DNA of 64,000 nucleotides, from contig MFYT01000039.1 of the NCBI GenBank assembly GCA_001789205.1, positions 85,295 to 149,294 on the forward strand. The letters run 5' to 3'. Shown here in pieces: positions 29,854 through 64,000 of this stretch. The notes under the pieces are model-generated. The model searched no databases, had not been told where the DNA came from, and was given only the letters and a program-made list of their open reading frames with translations. A program made the translations under genes and the position numbers. The DNA is from Candidatus Raymondbacteria bacterium RIFOXYA2_FULL_49_16 (GTDB lineage: Bacteria; Fibrobacterota; OXYB2-FULL-49-7; XYB2-FULL-49-35). The stretch's first letter is position 1. The number at the start of each line of letters is the position of its first letter.

Positions 29854-30645
29854 ATGCGCAGGTCTCTCATGAGTATTTCCCTGGCTGCAATACTGGCCTT
29901 GGCTGCGATTGTGTTTTCACAGGAAAATCCCAAACAGATTGTGCAAAAGTCGCAGGATGCCATGACTGTTGCAGGTTCAGAATCCATCAGTACCCTTACT
30001 ATCAATGATGGTAAAGGCAATCAGCGGGTGCGGAAGTTCTCGTCCGCGCAAAAGGCCGATGCTTCCAAGCAGGTGACAAAGATGGTCATGAGGTTTCTTG
30101 AACCAGCGGATGTAAAAGGCACGGGCATACTCACGTTCGACTATGACAACAAGGACGATGATATGTGGCTGTATATGCCCGCGCTCAGAAAGGTCCGCCG
30201 AATTGTGAGCGGGGAGAAGACAAAAAGCTTTATGGGTTCTGAATTTTCCAATGCTGATATTACCAAGCCGTCGATGTCGGATTTTACCTATGCAATGCTG
30301 GGCAGTGAAACACTTAATGATGTTGCGTGCTGGAAAATAGAGATGACACCCGCGTCTTCGGCCATAGGCGATGCATGCGGATATTCCAAAAAAATCGCCT
30401 GGATTGGGAAAGAGGATTATACTACACGAAAAACGGAGTTCTTTGACCTGGCCGGGTCGCTGACAAAGGTGATGATAACAGACAAAATCACGTGTCTCGA
30501 TGAAAAGCACAAGAAATACCAGCCAGTGGACATTACCATGCAGAACAAGCAGAATGGCCGTTCGTCCAGGTTTGTGATAGAAAAAGTGGTTTTTAATCCG
30601 AATGTTAAAGATGCATATTTTACCACAGATTATTTGGAGAAATAG
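29854..30645 (+). CDS. LolA-like outer membrane lipoprotein-sorting family protein
   Basis: Signal peptide. 'DMWLYMPALRKVRRIVSGEKTKSFMGSEFSNADI' parallels the ORF at 18889. Confidence 0.6.
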   Translation: MRRSLMSISLAAILALAAIVFSQENPKQIVQKSQDAMTVAGSESISTLTINDGKGNQRVRKFSSAQKADASKQVTKMVMRFLEPADVKGTGILTFDYDNKDDDMWLYMPALRKVRRIVSGEKTKSFMGSEFSNADITKPSMSDFTYAMLGSETLNDVACWKIEMTPASSAIGDACGYSKKIAWIGKEDYTTRKTEFFDLAGSLTKVMITDKITCLDEKHKKYQPVDITMQNKQNGRSSRFVIEKVVFNPNVKDAYFTTDYLEK

Positions 30646-56299: not shown

Positions 56300-58675
56300 T
56301 TAGTTTAGCAATATCAATTTTTTTGACATCATTACCTTGCCATTACAATGAACTTTTAATACATATATGCCTGCCGGCATATCAGATGCGTCCCATACGG
56401 CTGTTAACGAGCTTTTTATTGCCGCAGTTACTGAAGCAATCGAAGCAACCCTCCTCCCTTTTACATCAAACACGTCAAATCGCGGGGTGGCATTCTTGCC
56501 GTTAGGATTTTGCATTATAAAGCCCATGTTTTTAATCGATATTGTTGTTGATGGATTGAAGGGGTTTGGAGAAACGTCAACCCCTATGTCCGATAAAAAC
56601 CCGTTAGAAGTATATGCCTCAGTAACAAGATCCGGGGGCATGCAACCCTCGTCATGATAGGACCATTCGCTCTCAAGACCAAACAGATCGCTGTTGTTTA
56701 TTGCCAATCTGGCGGCAAAGGTAAAAAAAGTATTATTGGCCGGTTTTTTATGCACTTCTATTGCCAGGGTATTTGTTCCGTTTATTAAAAGATCTGAATA
56801 TTCTGAAATATCCGCATTTAAAAACAACCATCCTGCCGTATCAGCGGCCCAGGTGTCGTATGTCACCGGCCCTTCGGACATTTCAGCCCTCAGCACTTCG
56901 CGGCCGTTAAGATATGCCACCGAACCATAATGCAAATTCTGGTACAGCTGCAACCTGGTCACCTCGGAAACATCAGGTATGTTAAAAAGTTTCACGAAAT
57001 ATGCCGCATTTATCCCTGATGCAAGAGGCGTATTGCTGCTGTAATTACCGAAACGGGCCAGCCCGGCGCTCCAGCCGGGTCCGGTGGTAGTATAACCTGG
57101 ATTTTTCCATTGCGGTCCGCTAATGGAAGTGTCATAGACAAAGGTAATGATCTCAGGGGCTGATTCATTGCCCGAATCATCTTTCGCGCGTAGATACACT
57201 GTTTTGGTGGTTGAATATTGACAATCAACATTTGCCGTATGAACAACACCGCCGGTAATGGTAAACATATTTTCCATCTCTGCATACGATCGGTCTTCGA
57301 GGTCCCACTTTACTGTGGCATTTTCATTCGTTGCTGCCATAAGCTCCGCAGGACAGGCATGTATTACTCCTCGAGGCCCGGCCGAGACAAAGCGCGGGTC
57401 ATAATAGTCGTTTGTGTCCGCCAGAAACGTAATGACCGCGGACGTGTCCATTATATTTGGCGTTGGTTCATCATCAGCCGCCCGGATATAAAGAGTCTTT
57501 GTTTCCCCCTGCAGACAGGTAATGACCGTGCTGTGTAAAACGTCTCCGGTAATAGAAAATGTATTGGCCATACTGCCGTATTCCTGGTTGGTATAGCTCC
57601 ATTTTACCGTAGAGTTCTCATTCGTATTTACTGTAATGACCGCATCAAGAGATCGTACGGTATCAATCATGGACAGGCCCGGAGAAAAAACGGTAAAATA
57701 AGGCGCCTCCCTGTCCGGTGCGTCATTTACCGTCCAGAGATTCGCTATCTGCCAATCAGGATCATCGGCCTCCCAATTCCACAGACCTTTTTTCACCATA
57801 AAAGTAACGCTGTCATCATCAACCTGGATCCAGACAATTCCCATTCGCGGATCGTTCATTGCTATGCCGACATGTCCTGGATCTATCTGCCATATGCCGT
57901 CATCTTCATGCGCCCTGATATCAGTCCTCTCCGCGGTCTCATAACATCCGGTATCAGTTGCGCAGGGTCCGTCAGGATCTTTTATACGAAGAATATCGTA
58001 CCAGTGGGTGTGGCCCACAAGAACACCTTTAACTTTATTGCCGTGAGAGATAAGCATGTTCCAGAAATCTGGGACCCAGCTCCCTCTGCCTTCGATTGAT
58101 GTATGGCGCTGCCGTGCAAATGCGGGACAATGAAAAGCGATAAAAACATGTTTATTATTACCGGCTCCCGCAATCATGCTGCTGACTGAGTCTATCCAGC
58201 CGGTTTCTCCCCAGAAAGCGGTATACTGATCAAGGACAATCAGGCGAACGTTTTTCCAGTCTACATAATAGTTAAGGCCATCGCTAAAAACCGTCGTGCT
58301 GTCCTGCTTAACAAGAATGGAATCAACCATATATTCAACACAGGTCACGCCGCTCACTGCCGAACACCCTGATTCAACATCATGGTTCCCGTTAACAGGG
58401 AAATAGGCAACGCCATTGCTGTTGGCCCTCACCACATCATATAGAAGGCTATCTCCCACGGAGCTTGCTAGGCTAAGGTCGCCCCCAGCCACAATAAACT
58501 CAGCTTTCGGAAACGCAGGAGATGTATTTACCGTAGCATTAGTCAGTTCTTTGCAGGCCCATCGTACTGGTTTTTCACTGGTCAGATTATCGGCATAATA
58601 ACCGAAGCTCCATTTTTCACCAAACGCAACGGTGCTCAATAGAAGAATAATTGTAATCAGCAGGTAATTTGTCAT
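56300..58675 (-). CDS. T9SS-sorted secreted metallophosphoesterase with duplicated beta-sandwich domains (paralog of the ORFs at 4364 and 54163)
   Basis: 'VAGGDLSLAS','NGNHDVE','VGHTHWY'. Two 'TITGxVxHST' repeat domains. C-terminal sorting domain 'VSPNPFNPSTTISIKN...KVMMSKKLILLN'. Confidence 0.7.
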   Translation of the reverse strand: MTNYLLITIILLLSTVAFGEKWSFGYYADNLTSEKPVRWACKELTNATVNTSPAFPKAEFIVAGGDLSLASSVGDSLLYDVVRANSNGVAYFPVNGNHDVESGCSAVSGVTCVEYMVDSILVKQDSTTVFSDGLNYYVDWKNVRLIVLDQYTAFWGETGWIDSVSSMIAGAGNNKHVFIAFHCPAFARQRHTSIEGRGSWVPDFWNMLISHGNKVKGVLVGHTHWYDILRIKDPDGPCATDTGCYETAERTDIRAHEDDGIWQIDPGHVGIAMNDPRMGIVWIQVDDDSVTFMVKKGLWNWEADDPDWQIANLWTVNDAPDREAPYFTVFSPGLSMIDTVRSLDAVITVNTNENSTVKWSYTNQEYGSMANTFSITGDVLHSTVITCLQGETKTLYIRAADDEPTPNIMDTSAVITFLADTNDYYDPRFVSAGPRGVIHACPAELMAATNENATVKWDLEDRSYAEMENMFTITGGVVHTANVDCQYSTTKTVYLRAKDDSGNESAPEIITFVYDTSISGPQWKNPGYTTTGPGWSAGLARFGNYSSNTPLASGINAAYFVKLFNIPDVSEVTRLQLYQNLHYGSVAYLNGREVLRAEMSEGPVTYDTWAADTAGWLFLNADISEYSDLLINGTNTLAIEVHKKPANNTFFTFAARLAINNSDLFGLESEWSYHDEGCMPPDLVTEAYTSNGFLSDIGVDVSPNPFNPSTTISIKNMGFIMQNPNGKNATPRFDVFDVKGRRVASIASVTAAIKSSLTAVWDASDMPAGIYVLKVHCNGKVMMSKKLILLN

Positions 58676-58830
58676 AACGTGCGTCCGAATAAAAAATTTT
58701 AGTTTAAAAACAGATGTTCATTATAAAATATAATTAATATTGGCCTTTTTATTAGCAAAAATCGAGTTAAATATTTAATAAGTATAGATAAGAATAGATA
58801 TGTTGCTTATTTTTGTGTATATTTATTTTA

Positions 58831-59889
58831 ATGAAATATATTCATTTGTATGAATTATTGAAAAAAGAGATTTTAGAACAAAAATTCGCTCCTGGAGCAA
58901 AGCTACCGCCAATCAACCATCTCATCACAGACCTAAAAGCTTCATATGTTACTGTTCGCCACGCCTTGAAACTGCTCCAGCAGGAAGGGCTGATAAAAGG
59001 CGTGCGTTCAAAAGGGACCTTTGTCCGGGATTTGTCAGGGTTTGCGCCCTTTCCCCAGGAAAAAGAACGTTACCGCGTGGCTGTGCTTACTCCTGAACAG
59101 TTGTCCCGATCCATGACCGAACCCTACTTCAATAAGATATTCTGGGGCATTGAAGACGCGCTTTCGGAAATGAAGGGGTTGGCCTATGCGTTTTCAAACA
59201 AGGACAAAAATTTGCGAGAGATACTTAGGGAGCTAAATGTGCTCCAGATACATGCACTTATCACGGTCGGCCTGGAAGAAACAGGCTTCCGTACTGAACT
59301 GGACCGGATTGCCATGCCTGTTGTACATACTGATATTGAAGAAAAGTGCCATACCCGGTCAATTATAACAGCGGACAACCGGCAGGGTGGCCGCCTGGCC
59401 TTTGAAAAGCTCCGCTCCCTGGGCCACAGTAAGATCCTTTTTATCGAGGCATTCAACCAGAATATTAAAAAGATCGATTCCACCACTCTGCAGCGGTTCA
59501 AAGGGGCACGCGAGGCCGCGCGGCGCATAGGTTTCAGAGGACTCATGCGACGTAGTGTTTCGCACGAGCGCACCACGCGTGTGCGCGATATGCGTGCGCT
59601 GCTTGAGGAATGCGGCGCTTTTACAGGACTTGTCTTTTGTTCCTCAACGCTTTTCGGAATTGCCAAAGAGTATCTTGAAAATAAGCCGGTAGATCAGACA
59701 AAGCCGCTGGACATTGTCCTGTTTGACCTGAATGACGATCCTGAATTCATCCACCGCAAGCCAGTATGGTTCTGCAAGTGGGACGGGCAGGCCATGGGGA
59801 AGAAAGCAGTGCAGCTTGCTTTTGGACCCCGGAGCGCCCCCGGTCAGACGCATTATTTCCCTATGTTTTTACAAAGAAATATTCAGTAG
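58831..59889 (+). CDS. GntR-family HTH regulator fused to a LacI/periplasmic-binding-protein-like sugar-binding domain
   Basis: N-terminal winged HTH 'LPPINHLITDLKASYVTVRHALKLLQQEGLI'. C-terminal PBP-like region. A TTG at 58813 is a possible alternative start. Confidence 0.65.
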   Translation: MKYIHLYELLKKEILEQKFAPGAKLPPINHLITDLKASYVTVRHALKLLQQEGLIKGVRSKGTFVRDLSGFAPFPQEKERYRVAVLTPEQLSRSMTEPYFNKIFWGIEDALSEMKGLAYAFSNKDKNLREILRELNVLQIHALITVGLEETGFRTELDRIAMPVVHTDIEEKCHTRSIITADNRQGGRLAFEKLRSLGHSKILFIEAFNQNIKKIDSTTLQRFKGAREAARRIGFRGLMRRSVSHERTTRVRDMRALLEECGAFTGLVFCSSTLFGIAKEYLENKPVDQTKPLDIVLFDLNDDPEFIHRKPVWFCKWDGQAMGKKAVQLAFGPRSAPGQTHYFPMFLQRNIQ

Positions 59890-59933: not shown

Positions 59934-59963
59934 ATACGCATAGATATGCATAGAAATACATAG
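59934..59963 (+). promoter_or_regulatory. Three tandem 10-bp repeats (ATACGCATAG / ATATGCATAG / AAATACATAG) ending 7 nt before the MerR-fusion start codon
   Basis: Read directly from sequence. A related ATAGATA pair sits at 58785-58801, upstream of the GntR gene. Confidence 0.4.
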
Positions 59964-59970
59964 GTTTACT

Positions 59971-60741
59971 ATGGAAAAAGAATTACTATCGATTGGTGAA
60001 ACAAGCAAGCTGATAGGCATATCTATCGATACTATCCGGCGCTGGGAAAAGGATGGGATGCTGAAATCATTCCGGCCATCGCCAAGCGGTAACCGGTATT
60101 TCCGCAAAAAGGACATTACTGCTTTTCTTGCAAGGGAAAATCCTTTGGCAATCGGTTCCCTGGCGGGAAAAGCACGGGATTGGGTACTTGGTGCAACACC
60201 GGCCCCGCTTCCATCAACATTGCATTGCGAAACGAGCGATATCTTTAATGCGCGTCTCACCCTATTCGGACATGAGATCGGAAGCCTTCCGTATCTAAAG
60301 GATATTTTTCCGCTTGTCGTGGCAATTGCAGGTGAAATAGGGAACAATTCATACAACCATAATCTGGGAAATTGGCCCGATATGCCCGGCGCTTTTTTTG
60401 GCTACAATTTGTCAGAAGGCCTGGTTATGCTGGCAGACCGGGGGCAGGGGGTCTATGCGACGTTAAAACGTGTTTTGCCCGATTTGAAGGATGACAAGGA
60501 CGCGCTTGACGTTGCATTCACGCAGCACGTCTCGGGCCGTGCGCCTGAAAACCGGGGAAATGGATTGAAATTTGTCAAGGATGTGGTTCTGGCCAACCCC
60601 TTATCGCTTCAGTTCGCATCGGGTTCCGCTGAACTGATATTGAACCGTGTGCCGGGAAAAATGGAAAACATTGAGGCCGGGGTTCCGGTTCACGGATGTC
60701 TGGCTCGTATCGTTTTTCCTCGGAAAGGAATTAATCCATGA
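59971..60741 (+). CDS. MerR-type HTH fused to a GHKL/HATPase_c-like (anti-sigma-factor-kinase-like) domain
   Basis: MerR HTH 'LSIGETSKLIGISIDTIRRWEKDGML'. C-terminal 'LADRGQGV' (G1-like) and 'NRGNGLKFV' (G2-like). The stop overlaps the next start. Confidence 0.55.
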   Translation: MEKELLSIGETSKLIGISIDTIRRWEKDGMLKSFRPSPSGNRYFRKKDITAFLARENPLAIGSLAGKARDWVLGATPAPLPSTLHCETSDIFNARLTLFGHEIGSLPYLKDIFPLVVAIAGEIGNNSYNHNLGNWPDMPGAFFGYNLSEGLVMLADRGQGVYATLKRVLPDLKDDKDALDVAFTQHVSGRAPENRGNGLKFVKDVVLANPLSLQFASGSAELILNRVPGKMENIEAGVPVHGCLARIVFPRKGINP

Positions 60742-61016
60742 AAATCCAGGTGGGCAAATTCGGGACCATGCTTTTCGCGCGACCGGCTGGCAAAGAGGCT
60801 TTTCTGGCATTGCAACCCCTGCTCAGAGGCATGGACGATTCCGAGGAGGTTGTGGTTGATTTTTCCGATGTCGCCGTGATGACCCCATCGTGGGCCGATG
60901 AATTCGTGACCCCTTTGCGGAGTCAATTTCAGGGGCGCGTGCGTCTGCTGAATACGGAGAATCCTTCTGTCAAAGCAACGCTTGAGACACTTAAAAAGGC
61001 TTGCCGACGGCCATGA
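60738..61016 (+). CDS. STAS-like (DUF4325-type) small protein, putative partner of the HATPase domain
   Basis: 92 aa. 'EEVVVDFSDVAVMTPSWADEF' matches the DUF4325/STAS pattern. Translationally coupled on both sides. Confidence 0.5.
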   Translation: MKIQVGKFGTMLFARPAGKEAFLALQPLLRGMDDSEEVVVDFSDVAVMTPSWADEFVTPLRSQFQGRVRLLNTENPSVKATLETLKKACRRP

Positions 61017-63169
61017 CCATGGCACGCGGCATCCTGCAGGTTCTATTGATTGTTCTGACATGCATGACTTTTATTCCGGCAAGCGTTCTAAAAAATTCTT
61101 TTTTCACCTCCTCATTTGAAAGCGGCCCTGCCCTTATACAAGAGTCTTCGGTACAGAACAAAAAGAGTATGCTATACGAAGCCAGCGGCTTGGACCAATG
61201 GGTTTCACAGAATGGCCAGGGTTGGATTACTGTGCCGGAAAATATCGAACCGGTTTACTTTACCTATGCCCGTAGAACCGGAAATGTTTTCCAAGGCGTT
61301 TCCGGTCTCACGGGAAAATGGTCGGAATATTCAGAGGTGCGGACACGTGGATTCTACGGATGGGATGATATACCCACGGCCTGCGTGTCGCTTGTCCAGG
61401 GTATCCATGGACCAGGAGCCGCAAAGATCACCTTTCATACCAGCGACAAATATTGCCACCTTTTTGCCGCCATTCAGCCTCGAACAGAGTTGTACGGACG
61501 CTTTTACGTCAGGGTGTCCGAAGAGGCGATCAACTCGCTGTCAAAAGACCACGCGATTGCATGGTTCTACGAGCATATGTCCGACATTCACGGCCATTTC
61601 CGTATCGGGTGCGTGTTCCGGAACAATGAACCGGTTTTGTGTGCGCGGTTCCATATTTATACTGGAACGGAGAATGAGAAGCATGATGTGTATATGTACG
61701 GAAAAAATGCCGTTATTTCCGGGCAGGATTACTGTGTGGAGTTTTATTATCAGTGTGAATCCGACAACACCGGAGGTGCGCGTTTCTGGATAGATGGCGT
61801 GCTTGCGGCCGACAGTGCACGGTATCGTCTCCGGAACATGGGTGCTGTACAGCGCGTTCATTTCGGCGCTTTTTCGCGGGCAAAGTTTGATACCGGAAAT
61901 ATCATTATCGACGATATCGCATTTTCCAGCGAACGCGTTGGCCCTATCCCAGGGGTCGATTCCCTTTCTTTCCAGGACAATGTTTTTTCCCTGTTCTCTC
62001 GCGACCCATATATCCACATGCAGGTTCAGGCCGTGGATTCGTGCGTTCCCTGGTTTTTGGCTGGTTTCAACAGCGGGATTCTGAAAAAAGGAGACTCGCG
62101 ACTGTCCCATGCTTTAAACAACGCGGCTTTTATCAGGGCCCGTATACAAAACGCCTATGGGACCTGGAGCGAGTGGCGCGCTATCGCATCAGGCAGGAAC
62201 GTGGGTGCTTTCCCTCTCCAGAAGAGGGATTCCCTGGTGTGCGGCATTACGCTGACAGCGCTTGGAAAGGAAAAGCCTTTAAACTCGCTGCGGCCGGGCG
62301 AATGGGTCACGCTCCATATGAATTTTTCAGAGCTTCCCACGCGGGCGGATGTACTGTTGTCGCAATTCACCAACCGATCAGCATCGCTTCCTGGAAATTA
62401 CGGAAACGGTGATAAGAGGTCGAATTATTATTTTAGAATTTCATTGGGAGAAAGTCTTTTATGGACGCACAAGTTCGAAGGCGAAAGCGTGTTGTACGAG
62501 ATAAGCGGGCAAAAGCACGAGTATGTCAGGGACCATGGACTTGTCATAGACACGGTCGCCAAATCTATCTTGCTTACCTTCAGACTTTCTGACAGCGCAA
62601 AGACCGGGCCTTGGCTGTTGCAGGCTGTTGCCTATGATTCCATTGGGATGACTGGCGCAAAACCAATGCTGGTACCTTTCAACGTATCTGATATCCAAGA
62701 AGGAACAAAAAGAGTTCCCTTCGGGGGCATCGCGGTCATGATTGCGCTTGTCGTTGCCCTTGGCGCGGGCCTCATATTTGTTTTCAGAAAGGTACGTCCG
62801 GGAAAAACAGAGGGCGTGTCTTATTCAAGCAATCCGACTATACGACGGGCGCAGGAGATTATCAGCGAAGAGATCAGTAATCCAGCGCTTGATGTGGAAT
62901 TGGTTTCGGAAAAACTCAAGATAAGCAAAAGCAATCTCAGTTCGCAGTTTAAAAAAGAGACTGGACATTCGTTTCCTCAGTATTTAAATATGCTAAGAAT
63001 AGAAAAAGCAAAAGAATTGTTAAAAACATCAAATTTGAATGTTTCGGAAATAGCATTCCATGTCGGATACGGCACATATGAGCATTTCAACTATATTTTC
63101 AATCAGTATGAGAAGATACCTGCGAGCGAATTCCGCAAAAAAGCTGGCATGGAAAGGCTGAATAGATAA
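61013..63169 (+). CDS. Membrane-anchored AraC-family regulator with a large (about 570 aa) extracytoplasmic N-terminal domain
   Basis: Signal/TM 'GILQVLLIVLTCMTFIPA'. TM 'GGIAVMIALVVALGAGLIFVF'. C-terminal AraC HTH 'VSEIAFHVGYGTYEHFNYIFNQYEKIPASEFR'. The ATG overlaps the STAS gene stop (ATGA). Confidence 0.7.
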   Translation: MTMARGILQVLLIVLTCMTFIPASVLKNSFFTSSFESGPALIQESSVQNKKSMLYEASGLDQWVSQNGQGWITVPENIEPVYFTYARRTGNVFQGVSGLTGKWSEYSEVRTRGFYGWDDIPTACVSLVQGIHGPGAAKITFHTSDKYCHLFAAIQPRTELYGRFYVRVSEEAINSLSKDHAIAWFYEHMSDIHGHFRIGCVFRNNEPVLCARFHIYTGTENEKHDVYMYGKNAVISGQDYCVEFYYQCESDNTGGARFWIDGVLAADSARYRLRNMGAVQRVHFGAFSRAKFDTGNIIIDDIAFSSERVGPIPGVDSLSFQDNVFSLFSRDPYIHMQVQAVDSCVPWFLAGFNSGILKKGDSRLSHALNNAAFIRARIQNAYGTWSEWRAIASGRNVGAFPLQKRDSLVCGITLTALGKEKPLNSLRPGEWVTLHMNFSELPTRADVLLSQFTNRSASLPGNYGNGDKRSNYYFRISLGESLLWTHKFEGESVLYEISGQKHEYVRDHGLVIDTVAKSILLTFRLSDSAKTGPWLLQAVAYDSIGMTGAKPMLVPFNVSDIQEGTKRVPFGGIAVMIALVVALGAGLIFVFRKVRPGKTEGVSYSSNPTIRRAQEIISEEISNPALDVELVSEKLKISKSNLSSQFKKETGHSFPQYLNMLRIEKAKELLKTSNLNVSEIAFHVGYGTYEHFNYIFNQYEKIPASEFRKKAGMERLNR

Positions 63170-63349: not shown

Positions 63350-64000
63350 ATGCTGTCAGTACACAAGCGAGTAGTAGCGAATAGCCCTGTGCGAGAAAAC
63401 CGCACGCAAGGATCCGTGGGAGGGGTGCCGGGTAACCGGCGTTCCTATCCCAATCGTATCTTTTTTTTAATTTTTTTGTCCGTTTCCTTAAGCTTTGGCC
63501 AGCTATATGAATATATAAACGACCCATTGACAGATGGCGCTACCTTAGCCAAGGAAACGCAGGAAGGCTCGTTGGGGGCCGACGGCTGGAAGAGCCTCAC
63601 AAACACAGCATATCTGATGTATGAATTGCCTGAAAATACAAAATCCGGGAAATTGATATTTGAAGTCAAGGGATTCGAAGAGAATGCCGGAGAAGGCAAC
63701 GCGCGCCAGAACTGTATTGCATTGTATAATCTGTATCAGGCAACTGGCAACTATGTGGTAAAATCCAACACCGGCCAAGCCGGTATTATGTGGCGCTATT
63801 ATTATACAGATTTAGATGCGCACGGGCCTGGCGATGTACGGTTCAGGATCGAAGGACTCAATGTCTATGCGGAAGTGCAGCGTGATACCGAAAACCCGGG
63901 CTGGGACCAGAATACATGGTACACCATAGAGTTTGGCTGGAGCCAGACCAATGCGTACTGGAAGCGGAACGGTCAACAGTTCGCTACAATGTCATTTCCA
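63350..64000 (+). CDS. Hypothetical secreted protein, N-terminal fragment; ORF runs off the right window edge
   Basis: RBS GGAGG 8 nt upstream of the ATG. Open frame to the window end. Hydrophobic segment 'IFFLIFLSVSLSF'. Not in the six-frame track because there is no in-window stop. Confidence 0.5.
   Translation, partial: MLSVHKRVVANSPVRENRTQGSVGGVPGNRRSYPNRIFFLIFLSVSLSFGQLYEYINDPLTDGATLAKETQEGSLGADGWKSLTNTAYLMYELPENTKSGKLIFEVKGFEENAGEGNARQNCIALYNLYQATGNYVVKSNTGQAGIMWRYYYTDLDAHGPGDVRFRIEGLNVYAEVQRDTENPGWDQNTWYTIEFGWSQTNAYWKRNGQQFATMSFP

Follow-up and report, generated by a model that had tools for sequence, protein, structure and literature searches.

A conserved HTH-GHKL and DUF4325 gene pair with upstream direct repeats: a candidate self-regulated kinase/substrate switch found mainly in Patescibacteria

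Introduction

What kind of regulatory system is encoded by three overlapping genes of Candidatus Raymondbacteria bacterium RIFOXYA2_FULL_49_16, a member of the Fibrobacterota, and which of the three belong together? The genes lie at positions 59971-63169 of the window, by which we mean the whole 64,000-nucleotide stretch analyzed here (contig MFYT01000039.1 of GenBank assembly GCA_001789205.1, positions 85,295 to 149,294, forward strand). A previous reading of the locus, made from the sequence letters without database searches (the sequence-only reading), had proposed that gene 1 fuses a MerR-type helix-turn-helix (HTH) to a GHKL ATPase domain of the RsbW/SpoIIAB type and that it forms a partner-switching module with a STAS-like DUF4325 protein (gene 2), co-transcribed with a transmembrane AraC regulator (gene 3). 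As judged from the related loci that we compared, genes 1 and 2 form an obligate bicistronic unit whose promoter carries an array of direct repeats linked to the HTH. We consider the pair, with a probability of roughly 0.6, to be a self-contained, self-regulated kinase/substrate switch of the kind represented by CapK/CapS and VapK/VapS, built on a new architecture.

Results

Gene layout and conservation of the pair

All three genes are on the forward strand. Gene 1 (59971-60741) encodes a 256-amino-acid protein, P1, in which a MerR/BldC-like winged HTH is fused to a divergent GHKL kinase/ATPase domain; gene 2 (60738-61016) encodes P2, a minimal STAS-like DUF4325 protein of 92 amino acids identified with Pfam; and gene 3 (61013-63169) encodes P3, a transmembrane AraC regulator of 718 amino acids counted from the ATG at 61013. 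The ATGA stop/start overlaps that the sequence-only reading had noted at 60738 (P1/P2) and 61013 (P2/P3) can be read directly from the sequence, and independent gene callers reproduced the three-gene structure in the same species. No terminator-like site was found between genes 1, 2 and 3. The NCBI call of P1 in assembly GCA_001787835.1 (locus L083, 5321-6004) starts 29 codons late, so that the segment equivalent to window 59971-60057 is left out and a 227-amino-acid product without the HTH is named "hypothetical protein"; ENA and Logan call the gene at its full length of 256 amino acids.

A scan of one genome per species identified P1 relatives in at least 557 genomes, overwhelmingly from Patescibacteria, the candidate phyla radiation (CPR), with a few from Fibrobacterota, Saprospiraceae and other groups. 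The suggestion that such an HTH-GHKL combination is uncommon therefore has to be abandoned. The best 80 loci were compared, 78 of which had room downstream of the P1 homologue. A P2 homologue directly followed on the same strand in every one of the 78, and the distance from the P1 stop to the P2 start was -4 to +27 nucleotides (nt) in 76 loci. The adjacency of HTH-GHKL and DUF4325 genes, which the sequence-only reading had put forward for a co-occurrence search, is thus conserved.

The GHKL domain has a wider distribution than the fusion. An exhaustive HMMER search with this domain returned 287 clusters at 50% identity, which included HTH-less versions of ~195 amino acids and one version with a different N-terminal winged HTH. 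Among the variant loci with room, a DUF4325 gene came next in six of six (five HTH-less and one with the different winged HTH), often with a 4-nt overlap. Since these variants keep the DUF4325 pairing, the GHKL and DUF4325 proteins constitute the conserved core, to which the DNA-binding domain is an add-on.

Individual loci add some variety to this picture. P0262 (L092, 3001-3831), a 276-amino-acid member of the same GHKL family, carries an ArsR/TrmB-like winged HTH with DUF4325 still next, while the 320-amino-acid P0265 carries a cytidylyltransferase-like domain and may be either a fusion or a merged gene call. A HARE-HTH domain, which is typical of restriction/modification contexts, occurs in a protein encoded 40 nt upstream of one HTH-less GHKL and DUF4325 pair (L089, 3-851), with an LPD3-like gene downstream of that pair. 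Two separate P1-P2 copies (L042 and L069) are present in a single Peribacteria metagenome-assembled genome, CAZWLI01.

No conserved third gene was detected by all-against-all clustering of flanking open reading frames from 79 loci or by Pfam scans of 143 immediate neighbors. The next most frequent neighbor family occurred in only 7 of the 79 loci, and the 143 neighbors were mostly housekeeping genes, with occasional toxin-antitoxin genes (PIN-MazE, HicB and AbiEii). Likewise, no sigma factor gene occurred in the 79 loci, and no PIN gene or immune operon recurred near the pair. Assignment to a known defense system was rejected, PADLOC having returned only an HTH-level match to mad1. A phage origin was also rejected: the phage genomes searched gave HTH-level matches to excisionase-like genes only, and a single P1 relative (L096, IMGVR_UViG_3300022555_001665; 43% identity) was present among 2.9 million IMG/VR viral contigs. 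This contig may derive from a CPR phage or prophage, unless it is misclassified.

Direct repeats upstream of gene 1

Three tandem 10-bp repeats had been noticed upstream of gene 1. Tandem Repeats Finder recovered them at 59934-59963 (period 10, 3.0 copies), and they proved to be copies of a conserved motif. The putative operator (59935-59968, forward strand) comprises three direct copies of WWTGYATAGRTTT phased at 10 bp, the 14-mers at 59935, 59945 and 59955 scoring 11.9, 8.7 and 15.6, respectively, against a position weight matrix, and the array stops 2 nt ahead of the gene 1 ATG. Across phyla, the same motif (TGYATAGRTTT) recurs before nearly all P1 homologues. For 81 HTH-bearing genes, the matrix identified 173 forward versus 5 reverse sites in the upstream 160 nt, with at least one site before 75 of the 81 genes and at least two before 66. 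This corresponds to 13.3 sites per kb upstream of P1 homologues, a 233-fold enrichment over 663 kb of flanking DNA, where the rate on each strand was 0.057 per kb. The rate in 355 other intergenic regions was 0.074 sites per kb, none of these regions having two or more sites, and shuffled upstream regions gave 2.15 sites versus 169 observed. Successive sites were 10 or 20-21 bp apart, and they abutted the -35 element, overlapped the -10 element or filled the stretch from the -10 element to the start codon.

Loci without the MerR-type HTH provided a natural control. The motif was found in none of seven independent loci of this type (six HTH-less and one with a different winged HTH) versus 75 of 81 with the HTH (Fisher p = 2.7e-7). 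No further operator arrays were present in the 663 kb of flanks, and the 64-kb window holds one array only; a large local regulon is therefore unlikely. Two isolated single matches in the window, at 30283-30296 (reverse strand, score 12.0) and 63801-63814 (forward strand, score 10.1), lie outside arrays and are probably chance matches. An unrelated ~22-bp tandem direct repeat (GTAGCCCTCCTGGAAT[TG]CTG, two copies) is found upstream of one HTH-less GHKL gene (L091, ~2890-2960).

The N-terminal HTH of P1

Residues 5-55 of P1 (59983-60135) form a winged HTH of the MerR type. In agreement with the sequence-only reading, this region scored above the Pfam thresholds for MerR (36.9 bits, cut-off 28.2) and MerR_1 (32.2 bits, cut-off 21.6), as it did for HTH_17, and a profile search against the PDB matched MerR-family proteins through their HTH only. 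The HTH extends to about residue 54 in the AlphaFold2 model and is followed by a disordered linker (residues 55-61; predicted local distance difference test score, pLDDT, <50), a 10-residue helix and then the GHKL domain. The long coiled-coil dimerization helix and the effector-binding region of MerR proteins are absent from the model.

Classical MerR regulators have this long C-terminal coiled-coil helix and an effector-binding region, and they bind a palindromic operator within a promoter spacer of 19-20 bp. The P1 family differs on each count, having direct repeats at the -35 element, at the -10 element or downstream of the -10 element and promoter spacers of 16-18 bp. In Foldseek searches the P1 HTH instead matched BldC (6amk_B and 6ama) with a probability of 1.0, a target-normalized template modeling score (TMt) of 0.70-0.78 and 32-34% identity, although it missed the threshold of the NCBIfam model HTH_BldC (NF033787; 22.1 bits versus a cut-off of 77). 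Like BldC, P1 has a MerR-type winged HTH without a coiled coil, and its putative sites consist of a variable number of short, AT-rich direct repeats. BldC differs in being a 68-residue stand-alone protein from Streptomyces that recognizes a 9-bp repeat, AATTxxxxC (Schumacher et al. 2018, PMC5859096), whereas the repeat unit before P1 is 10 bp and P1 carries a C-terminal kinase-like domain. Judging from the model and the putative sites, the P1 HTH would behave like that of BldC and not like a classical MerR protein. Because the phased direct repeats track the HTH, the HTH superposes on BldC and BldC forms head-to-tail multimers on direct repeats (PMC5859096), we infer that P1 binds the upstream repeats and represses its own operon.

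The C-terminal GHKL domain of P1

The remainder of P1 was difficult to place by sequence. Residues 60-256 were silent in Pfam, NCBIfam and PDB sequence searches, whether the single protein or the P1-family profiles A1 and A5 (which also served in the hhalign and hmmsearch comparisons below) were used. AlphaFold2 modeled this region with greater confidence (residues 62-256, pLDDT 89.7, predicted template modeling score 0.88) than P1 as a whole (pLDDT 84), and the best 50 Foldseek matches of the domain in the PDB were all GHKL ATP-binding domains (TopoII, GyrB, ParE and Hsp90/TRAP1), with probabilities of up to 1.00. The model, the Foldseek matches, the box residues, the Pfam matches of relatives and hhalign together delimit a GHKL (Bergerat-fold) domain at residues ~85-250 (60223-60720).

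The "DRGQG" and "GNGLKF" boxes singled out by the sequence-only reading are present, as G1 (residues 156-160, D156-x-G-x-G160; 60436-60450) and G2 (residues 196-201, G196-x-G198-L; 60556-60573), and an N box, "EIGNNSYNH" (residues 122-130, with the ExxxN residues E122 and N126), is encoded at 60334-60360. Each is placed as the fold requires: the long helix carries ExxxN, DxGxG follows the second strand and GxGL comes behind the lid. E122, N126, D156, G158, G160, G196, G198 and L199 did not vary in any of 36 close or 42 diverse relatives. HATPase_c_2, the Pfam family of RsbW and SpoIIAB, was matched by 22 of the diverse relatives and HATPase_c by 13, with no match reaching the gathering score (best E ~6e-4). 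We conclude that the C-terminal region of P1 is a highly divergent GHKL domain. The proposed RsbW/SpoIIAB subtype is plausible from these sub-threshold profile matches and from the link to CapK and VapK described below, and not from the structural ranking, which is headed by GyrB, TopoII and Hsp90. This GHKL family is invisible to Pfam, and its members currently bear only the names "MerR family transcriptional regulator" or "hypothetical protein".

An additional conserved feature, consisting of an invariant Trp71 and the motif YCETxD[VI]FxARL, lies just ahead of the N-box helix (residues 62-96; window 60154-60258). It is kept even in HTH-less relatives, and a counterpart in SpoIIAB, CapK or VapK was not identified. 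The region may be a surface for P2 docking, dimerization or signal sensing.

P2 and its invariant serine

P2 scored 30.6 bits against DUF4325 in Pfam (cut-off 23; E 2.7e-7), as the sequence-only reading had anticipated, while a PDB profile search with the P2 family gave no match. P2 and its homologues consist of the STAS domain only, at 84-113 amino acids, with no output domain. Within the motif PSWADEF, Ser51 (codon 60888-60890) was invariant among 31 P2 homologues, and it aligned exactly to Ser54 of CapS, the residue that is phosphorylated experimentally. By analogy with CapS, Ser51 is the predicted phospho-acceptor and most likely the substrate site of the P1 GHKL domain.

Comparison with known kinase/STAS systems

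In the CapKS system, CapK is a kinase with HTH, STAS and GHKL domains and CapS is a repressor with STAS and winged HTH domains; single-stranded DNA activates CapK, and phosphorylation of CapS Ser54 releases CapS from DNA (Chambers et al., EMBO J 2026, PMC13373217). In the VapKSC system, VapK has STAS and GHKL domains, VapS is a STAS antitoxin and VapC is a PIN toxin (PMC13373217). Kinase activity and phosphorylation-driven release were shown for CapK and CapS, and for VapK and VapS they are supported by phosphomimetic and alanine mutants (PMC13373217). CapKS was located upstream of immune operons in 348 of 443 cases (PMC13373217). We took the CapK, CapS, VapK and VapS sequences from the supplementary files of that study.

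The P1-family profiles aligned best with VapK (A5: hhalign E 3e-6, probability 88%; hmmsearch 24 bits), followed by CapK (hhalign E 1.7e-4 with A1, probability 50%, and 8.5e-4 with A5; hmmsearch 13 bits). VapK and CapK were both clearly better than SpoIIAB, for which hhalign aligned the N boxes at E 0.29 (A1) and 0.021 (A5) and hmmsearch gave 5.6 bits. The best pairwise BLAST value of a P1 relative in the SpoIIAB/RsbW comparison, against a three-sequence database, was 3e-4.

Besides this profile match, P1-P2 and VapK-VapS have the same gene arrangement, in which a small STAS gene comes directly after the GHKL kinase gene. VapS falls clearly into DUF4325 (E 2.7e-17), the Pfam family of P2, and a conserved Ser/Thr is found at the start of the STAS helix. 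The two systems nevertheless differ in several respects. VapK has an N-terminal STAS domain, the proposed sensor of single-stranded DNA, and no HTH, whereas P1 has an HTH and no STAS domain: only ~35 residues (56-91) separate the HTH from the first GHKL helix, and the VapK alignment to P1 starts at VapK residue 123, past the VapK STAS domain. The C-terminal helix with which VapS inhibits VapC is missing from P2, and a PIN toxin gene, always present in VapKSC, is not linked to P1-P2.

These differences bear on whether P1-P2 could be a toxin-antitoxin or anti-phage module like VapKSC, in which P2 would neutralize a toxic partner (unlinked, or P1 itself) until phosphorylated. The closest characterized DUF4325 protein, VapS, is an antitoxin whose release follows from phosphorylation by VapK (PMC13373217), and the genes of a PIN subfamily show transcriptional coupling to DUF4325 genes (PMC5499597). 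Variable neighborhoods, a patchy phyletic spread, the apparently tight self-regulation and the occasional PIN-MazE, HicB and AbiEii neighbors would also fit. However, neither a PIN gene nor another conserved toxin gene stands beside the pair, most neighbors are housekeeping genes, the viral and PADLOC searches yielded only the few matches given above, and P2 is without the helix by which VapS acts on VapC. We therefore regard a toxin-antitoxin or defense role as unlikely.

CapK resembles P1 in being a kinase with an N-terminal HTH that precedes its STAS substrate, and the CapKS pair regulates the transcription of itself and of the adjacent operon. By eye, CapK and P1 also have in common the motifs DxGxG...TLKR (D-x-G-x-G-[IV]-x-[AT]-T-L-K-R) and APxE..RGxGLK (A-P-x-E-..-R-G-x-G-L-K). 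In contrast to P1, CapK has an internal STAS domain and an HTH that is not of the MerR type. The DNA-binding repressor in CapKS is the substrate, CapS, acting at palindromes, whereas the only DNA-binding domain of P1-P2 is on the kinase and the associated sites are direct repeats. The immune-operon linkage of CapKS was not seen for the P1-P2 family.

The third comparison is with SpoIIAB-SpoIIAA and RsbW-RsbV, in which the partner of a GHKL serine kinase is likewise a STAS antagonist of one domain with a phosphorylatable serine. Classical anti-sigma switching, with the P1 GHKL domain sequestering an unlinked sigma factor, P2 as the anti-anti-sigma factor and the HTH serving only self-regulation, would agree with HATPase_c_2 being the commonest, if sub-threshold, Pfam match among P1 relatives, with the invariant serine of P2 at a SpoIIAA-like position and with the hhalign pairing of the P1 and SpoIIAB N boxes. 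Yet sequence similarity to SpoIIAB is marginal (hhalign E 0.02-0.29) and well below that to VapK and CapK, P1 is fused to a DNA-binding domain, and neither a sigma factor gene nor a PP2C phosphatase gene lies near P1-P2, the 79 loci having no sigma factor or recurrent third gene. The gene order is also opposite: P1-P2, like capK-capS and vapK-vapS, runs from kinase to STAS protein, the reverse of spoIIAA-AB and rsbV-W. We consider anti-sigma switching rather improbable for this pair. The partner-switching module proposed from sequence thus survives as a strictly conserved pair of kinase-like and antagonist-like proteins, homologous to CapK/CapS and VapK/VapS, while switching in the strict sense is putative, no sigma factor or other target being linked.

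Taken together, these comparisons suggest that P1-P2 is best filed as a kinase/STAS pair of the CapK/CapS and VapK/VapS kind, with a new architecture that includes a BldC-like and presumably self-repressing HTH. The pair is without three features that define CapKS and VapKS, namely a STAS domain in the kinase, an element of the STAS protein that provides the output, and linkage to an immune operon or toxin.

Gene 3 and the surroundings of the pair

Two hydrophobic segments in P3 (residues ~6-26 and 571-592), both ahead of a C-terminal AraC HTH that scored 66 bits against HTH_18/AraC in Pfam, bear out the transmembrane topology and the AraC assignment made from sequence. P3 thus comprises a signal/anchor segment, an extracytoplasmic domain of ~540 amino acids, a transmembrane helix (nt ~62723-62788) and a cytoplasmic AraC HTH (nt ~62822-63145). 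The extracytoplasmic domain (residues 27-570; window 61013-62720) has no Pfam match.

It is conceivable that P1-P2 is a dedicated accessory of this membrane sensor and that the three genes make up one system. Genes 2 and 3 share a 4-nt ATGA overlap without a terminator between them, and the P1-P2-P3 arrangement is identical in all contigs of this species. On the other hand, none of the 80 related loci has a P3 homologue, a same-strand gene starts within 50 nt after P2 in only 15 of 69 loci, and the sole P3 homologue among 5.8 billion proteins (62% identity) is preceded by a different AraC regulator and not by P1-P2. The coupling of P3 is therefore lineage-specific, P3 is not a member of the module, and a three-gene system is very unlikely. 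Co-transcription of P3 with P1-P2 in this genome, as claimed by the sequence-only reading, is probably real.

The gene upstream of gene 1 (58813-59889, forward strand) encodes a hybrid regulator in which a GntR HTH is combined with a LacI-type periplasmic-binding-protein-like sensor domain. Large secreted proteins with Por_Secre_tail domains of the type IX secretion system and Metallophos domains flank this regulator (56300-58675, reverse strand, and genes after 63341). The setting of the module in the window looks like a secreted-enzyme or glycan-utilization cluster.

Discussion

The reading that we favor, a self-regulated kinase/substrate switch, can be set out as a sequence of predicted steps. 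The P1 HTH would bind the upstream repeats head-to-tail, as BldC does, and the multimerized protein would repress its own operon. By homology with CapK/VapK and CapS/VapS, the GHKL domain would bind ATP, dock P2 and phosphorylate it on Ser51. More speculatively, the phosphorylation state of P2 may alter the P1-P2 complex and hence occupancy of the operator, and/or it may affect how P2 binds an unlinked target. The HTH probably holds the pair at a poised level, as has been argued for the self-regulation of CapS (PMC13373217). In this genome, since gene 3 is translationally coupled behind gene 2, expression of P3 would be gated by the same operator, which would resemble the role of CapKS as "controller of the adjacent pathway".

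Several observations weigh against this reading. No HATPase match was obtained in Pfam for P1 or for any of its 36 close homologues, even at E<=10. Of the HMMER assignments that the sequence-only reading had named as its own check, DUF4325 and MerR were recovered while HATPase_c was undetected, which counts in part against the original claim; the GHKL ATPase domain stands instead on the fold model, the invariant boxes and the relatives. The Foldseek matches of this domain are of modest strength (E ~5e-4, template modeling score ~0.4), and the top ones are ATPases (GyrB and Hsp90) and not protein kinases, with SpoIIAB, RsbW and histidine kinases absent from the first 50. The hhalign links to CapK and VapK, at probabilities of only 50-88%, were obtained with single-sequence templates, and the support that they give to homology is moderate for this reason. 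In the alignment with VapS, the serines are off by one, phospho-Ser48 of VapS facing Pro50 of P2 and not Ser51. Deletion of the CapK HTH had no phenotype in the published reporter (PMC13373217). The existence of HTH-less pairs indicates that the core function is not DNA binding by the kinase and that the kinase-STAS reaction would have to serve something beyond self-regulation. Lastly, P1 has no STAS domain and P2 has no output domain through which the switch would act.

The structural matches raise a further explanation, that P1 works as a DNA clamp driven by ATP, or as an ATPase, of the GyrB/MutL/Hsp90/MORC type and not as a protein kinase. ATP-dependent dimerization would then set the spacing of the HTHs along the repeats, and P2 would be a cofactor and not a substrate. 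All top Foldseek matches being GHL-class ATPases, together with the invariance of the general-base glutamate of ExxxN, would suit such a protein. However, the sequence profiles point to HATPase_c_2, VapK and CapK, the domain is small (~165 amino acids) and without the transducer domain of GHL ATPases, and P2 has its invariant serine at the CapS phospho-site. A clamp of this kind seems to us quite unlikely.

Returning to the kinase/substrate switch, a more tentative elaboration is that the repressor is the kinase itself: phosphorylation of the minimal STAS substrate might control the assembly or dismantling of a BldC-type filament that the HTH-GHKL protein forms on phased direct repeats, giving a stress-responsive, one-operon switch in genome-reduced CPR bacteria that could be an ancestral minimal form of CapKS and VapKSC. 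We view this as possible and hold it with much less confidence than the general reading.

We found no description of the HTH-GHKL and DUF4325 family in the literature searched on DUF4325/STAS-like proteins and on MerR proteins of Patescibacteria. The module is widespread, previously undescribed in that literature and unrecognized by domain databases. To our knowledge, CPR bacteria have very few recognizable regulators and almost no experimentally understood signaling. The present comparison provides a two-gene module in hundreds of CPR species, with an operator, a phospho-acceptor residue and catalytic residues predicted for it, and these predictions are testable in vitro or in E. coli without culturing CPR organisms. 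If the favored reading is correct, the kinase-STAS principle of CapK/CapS and VapK/VapS would extend beyond anti-phage loci, and the pair would offer a possible role for a kinase-borne HTH, a role left unexplained for CapK.

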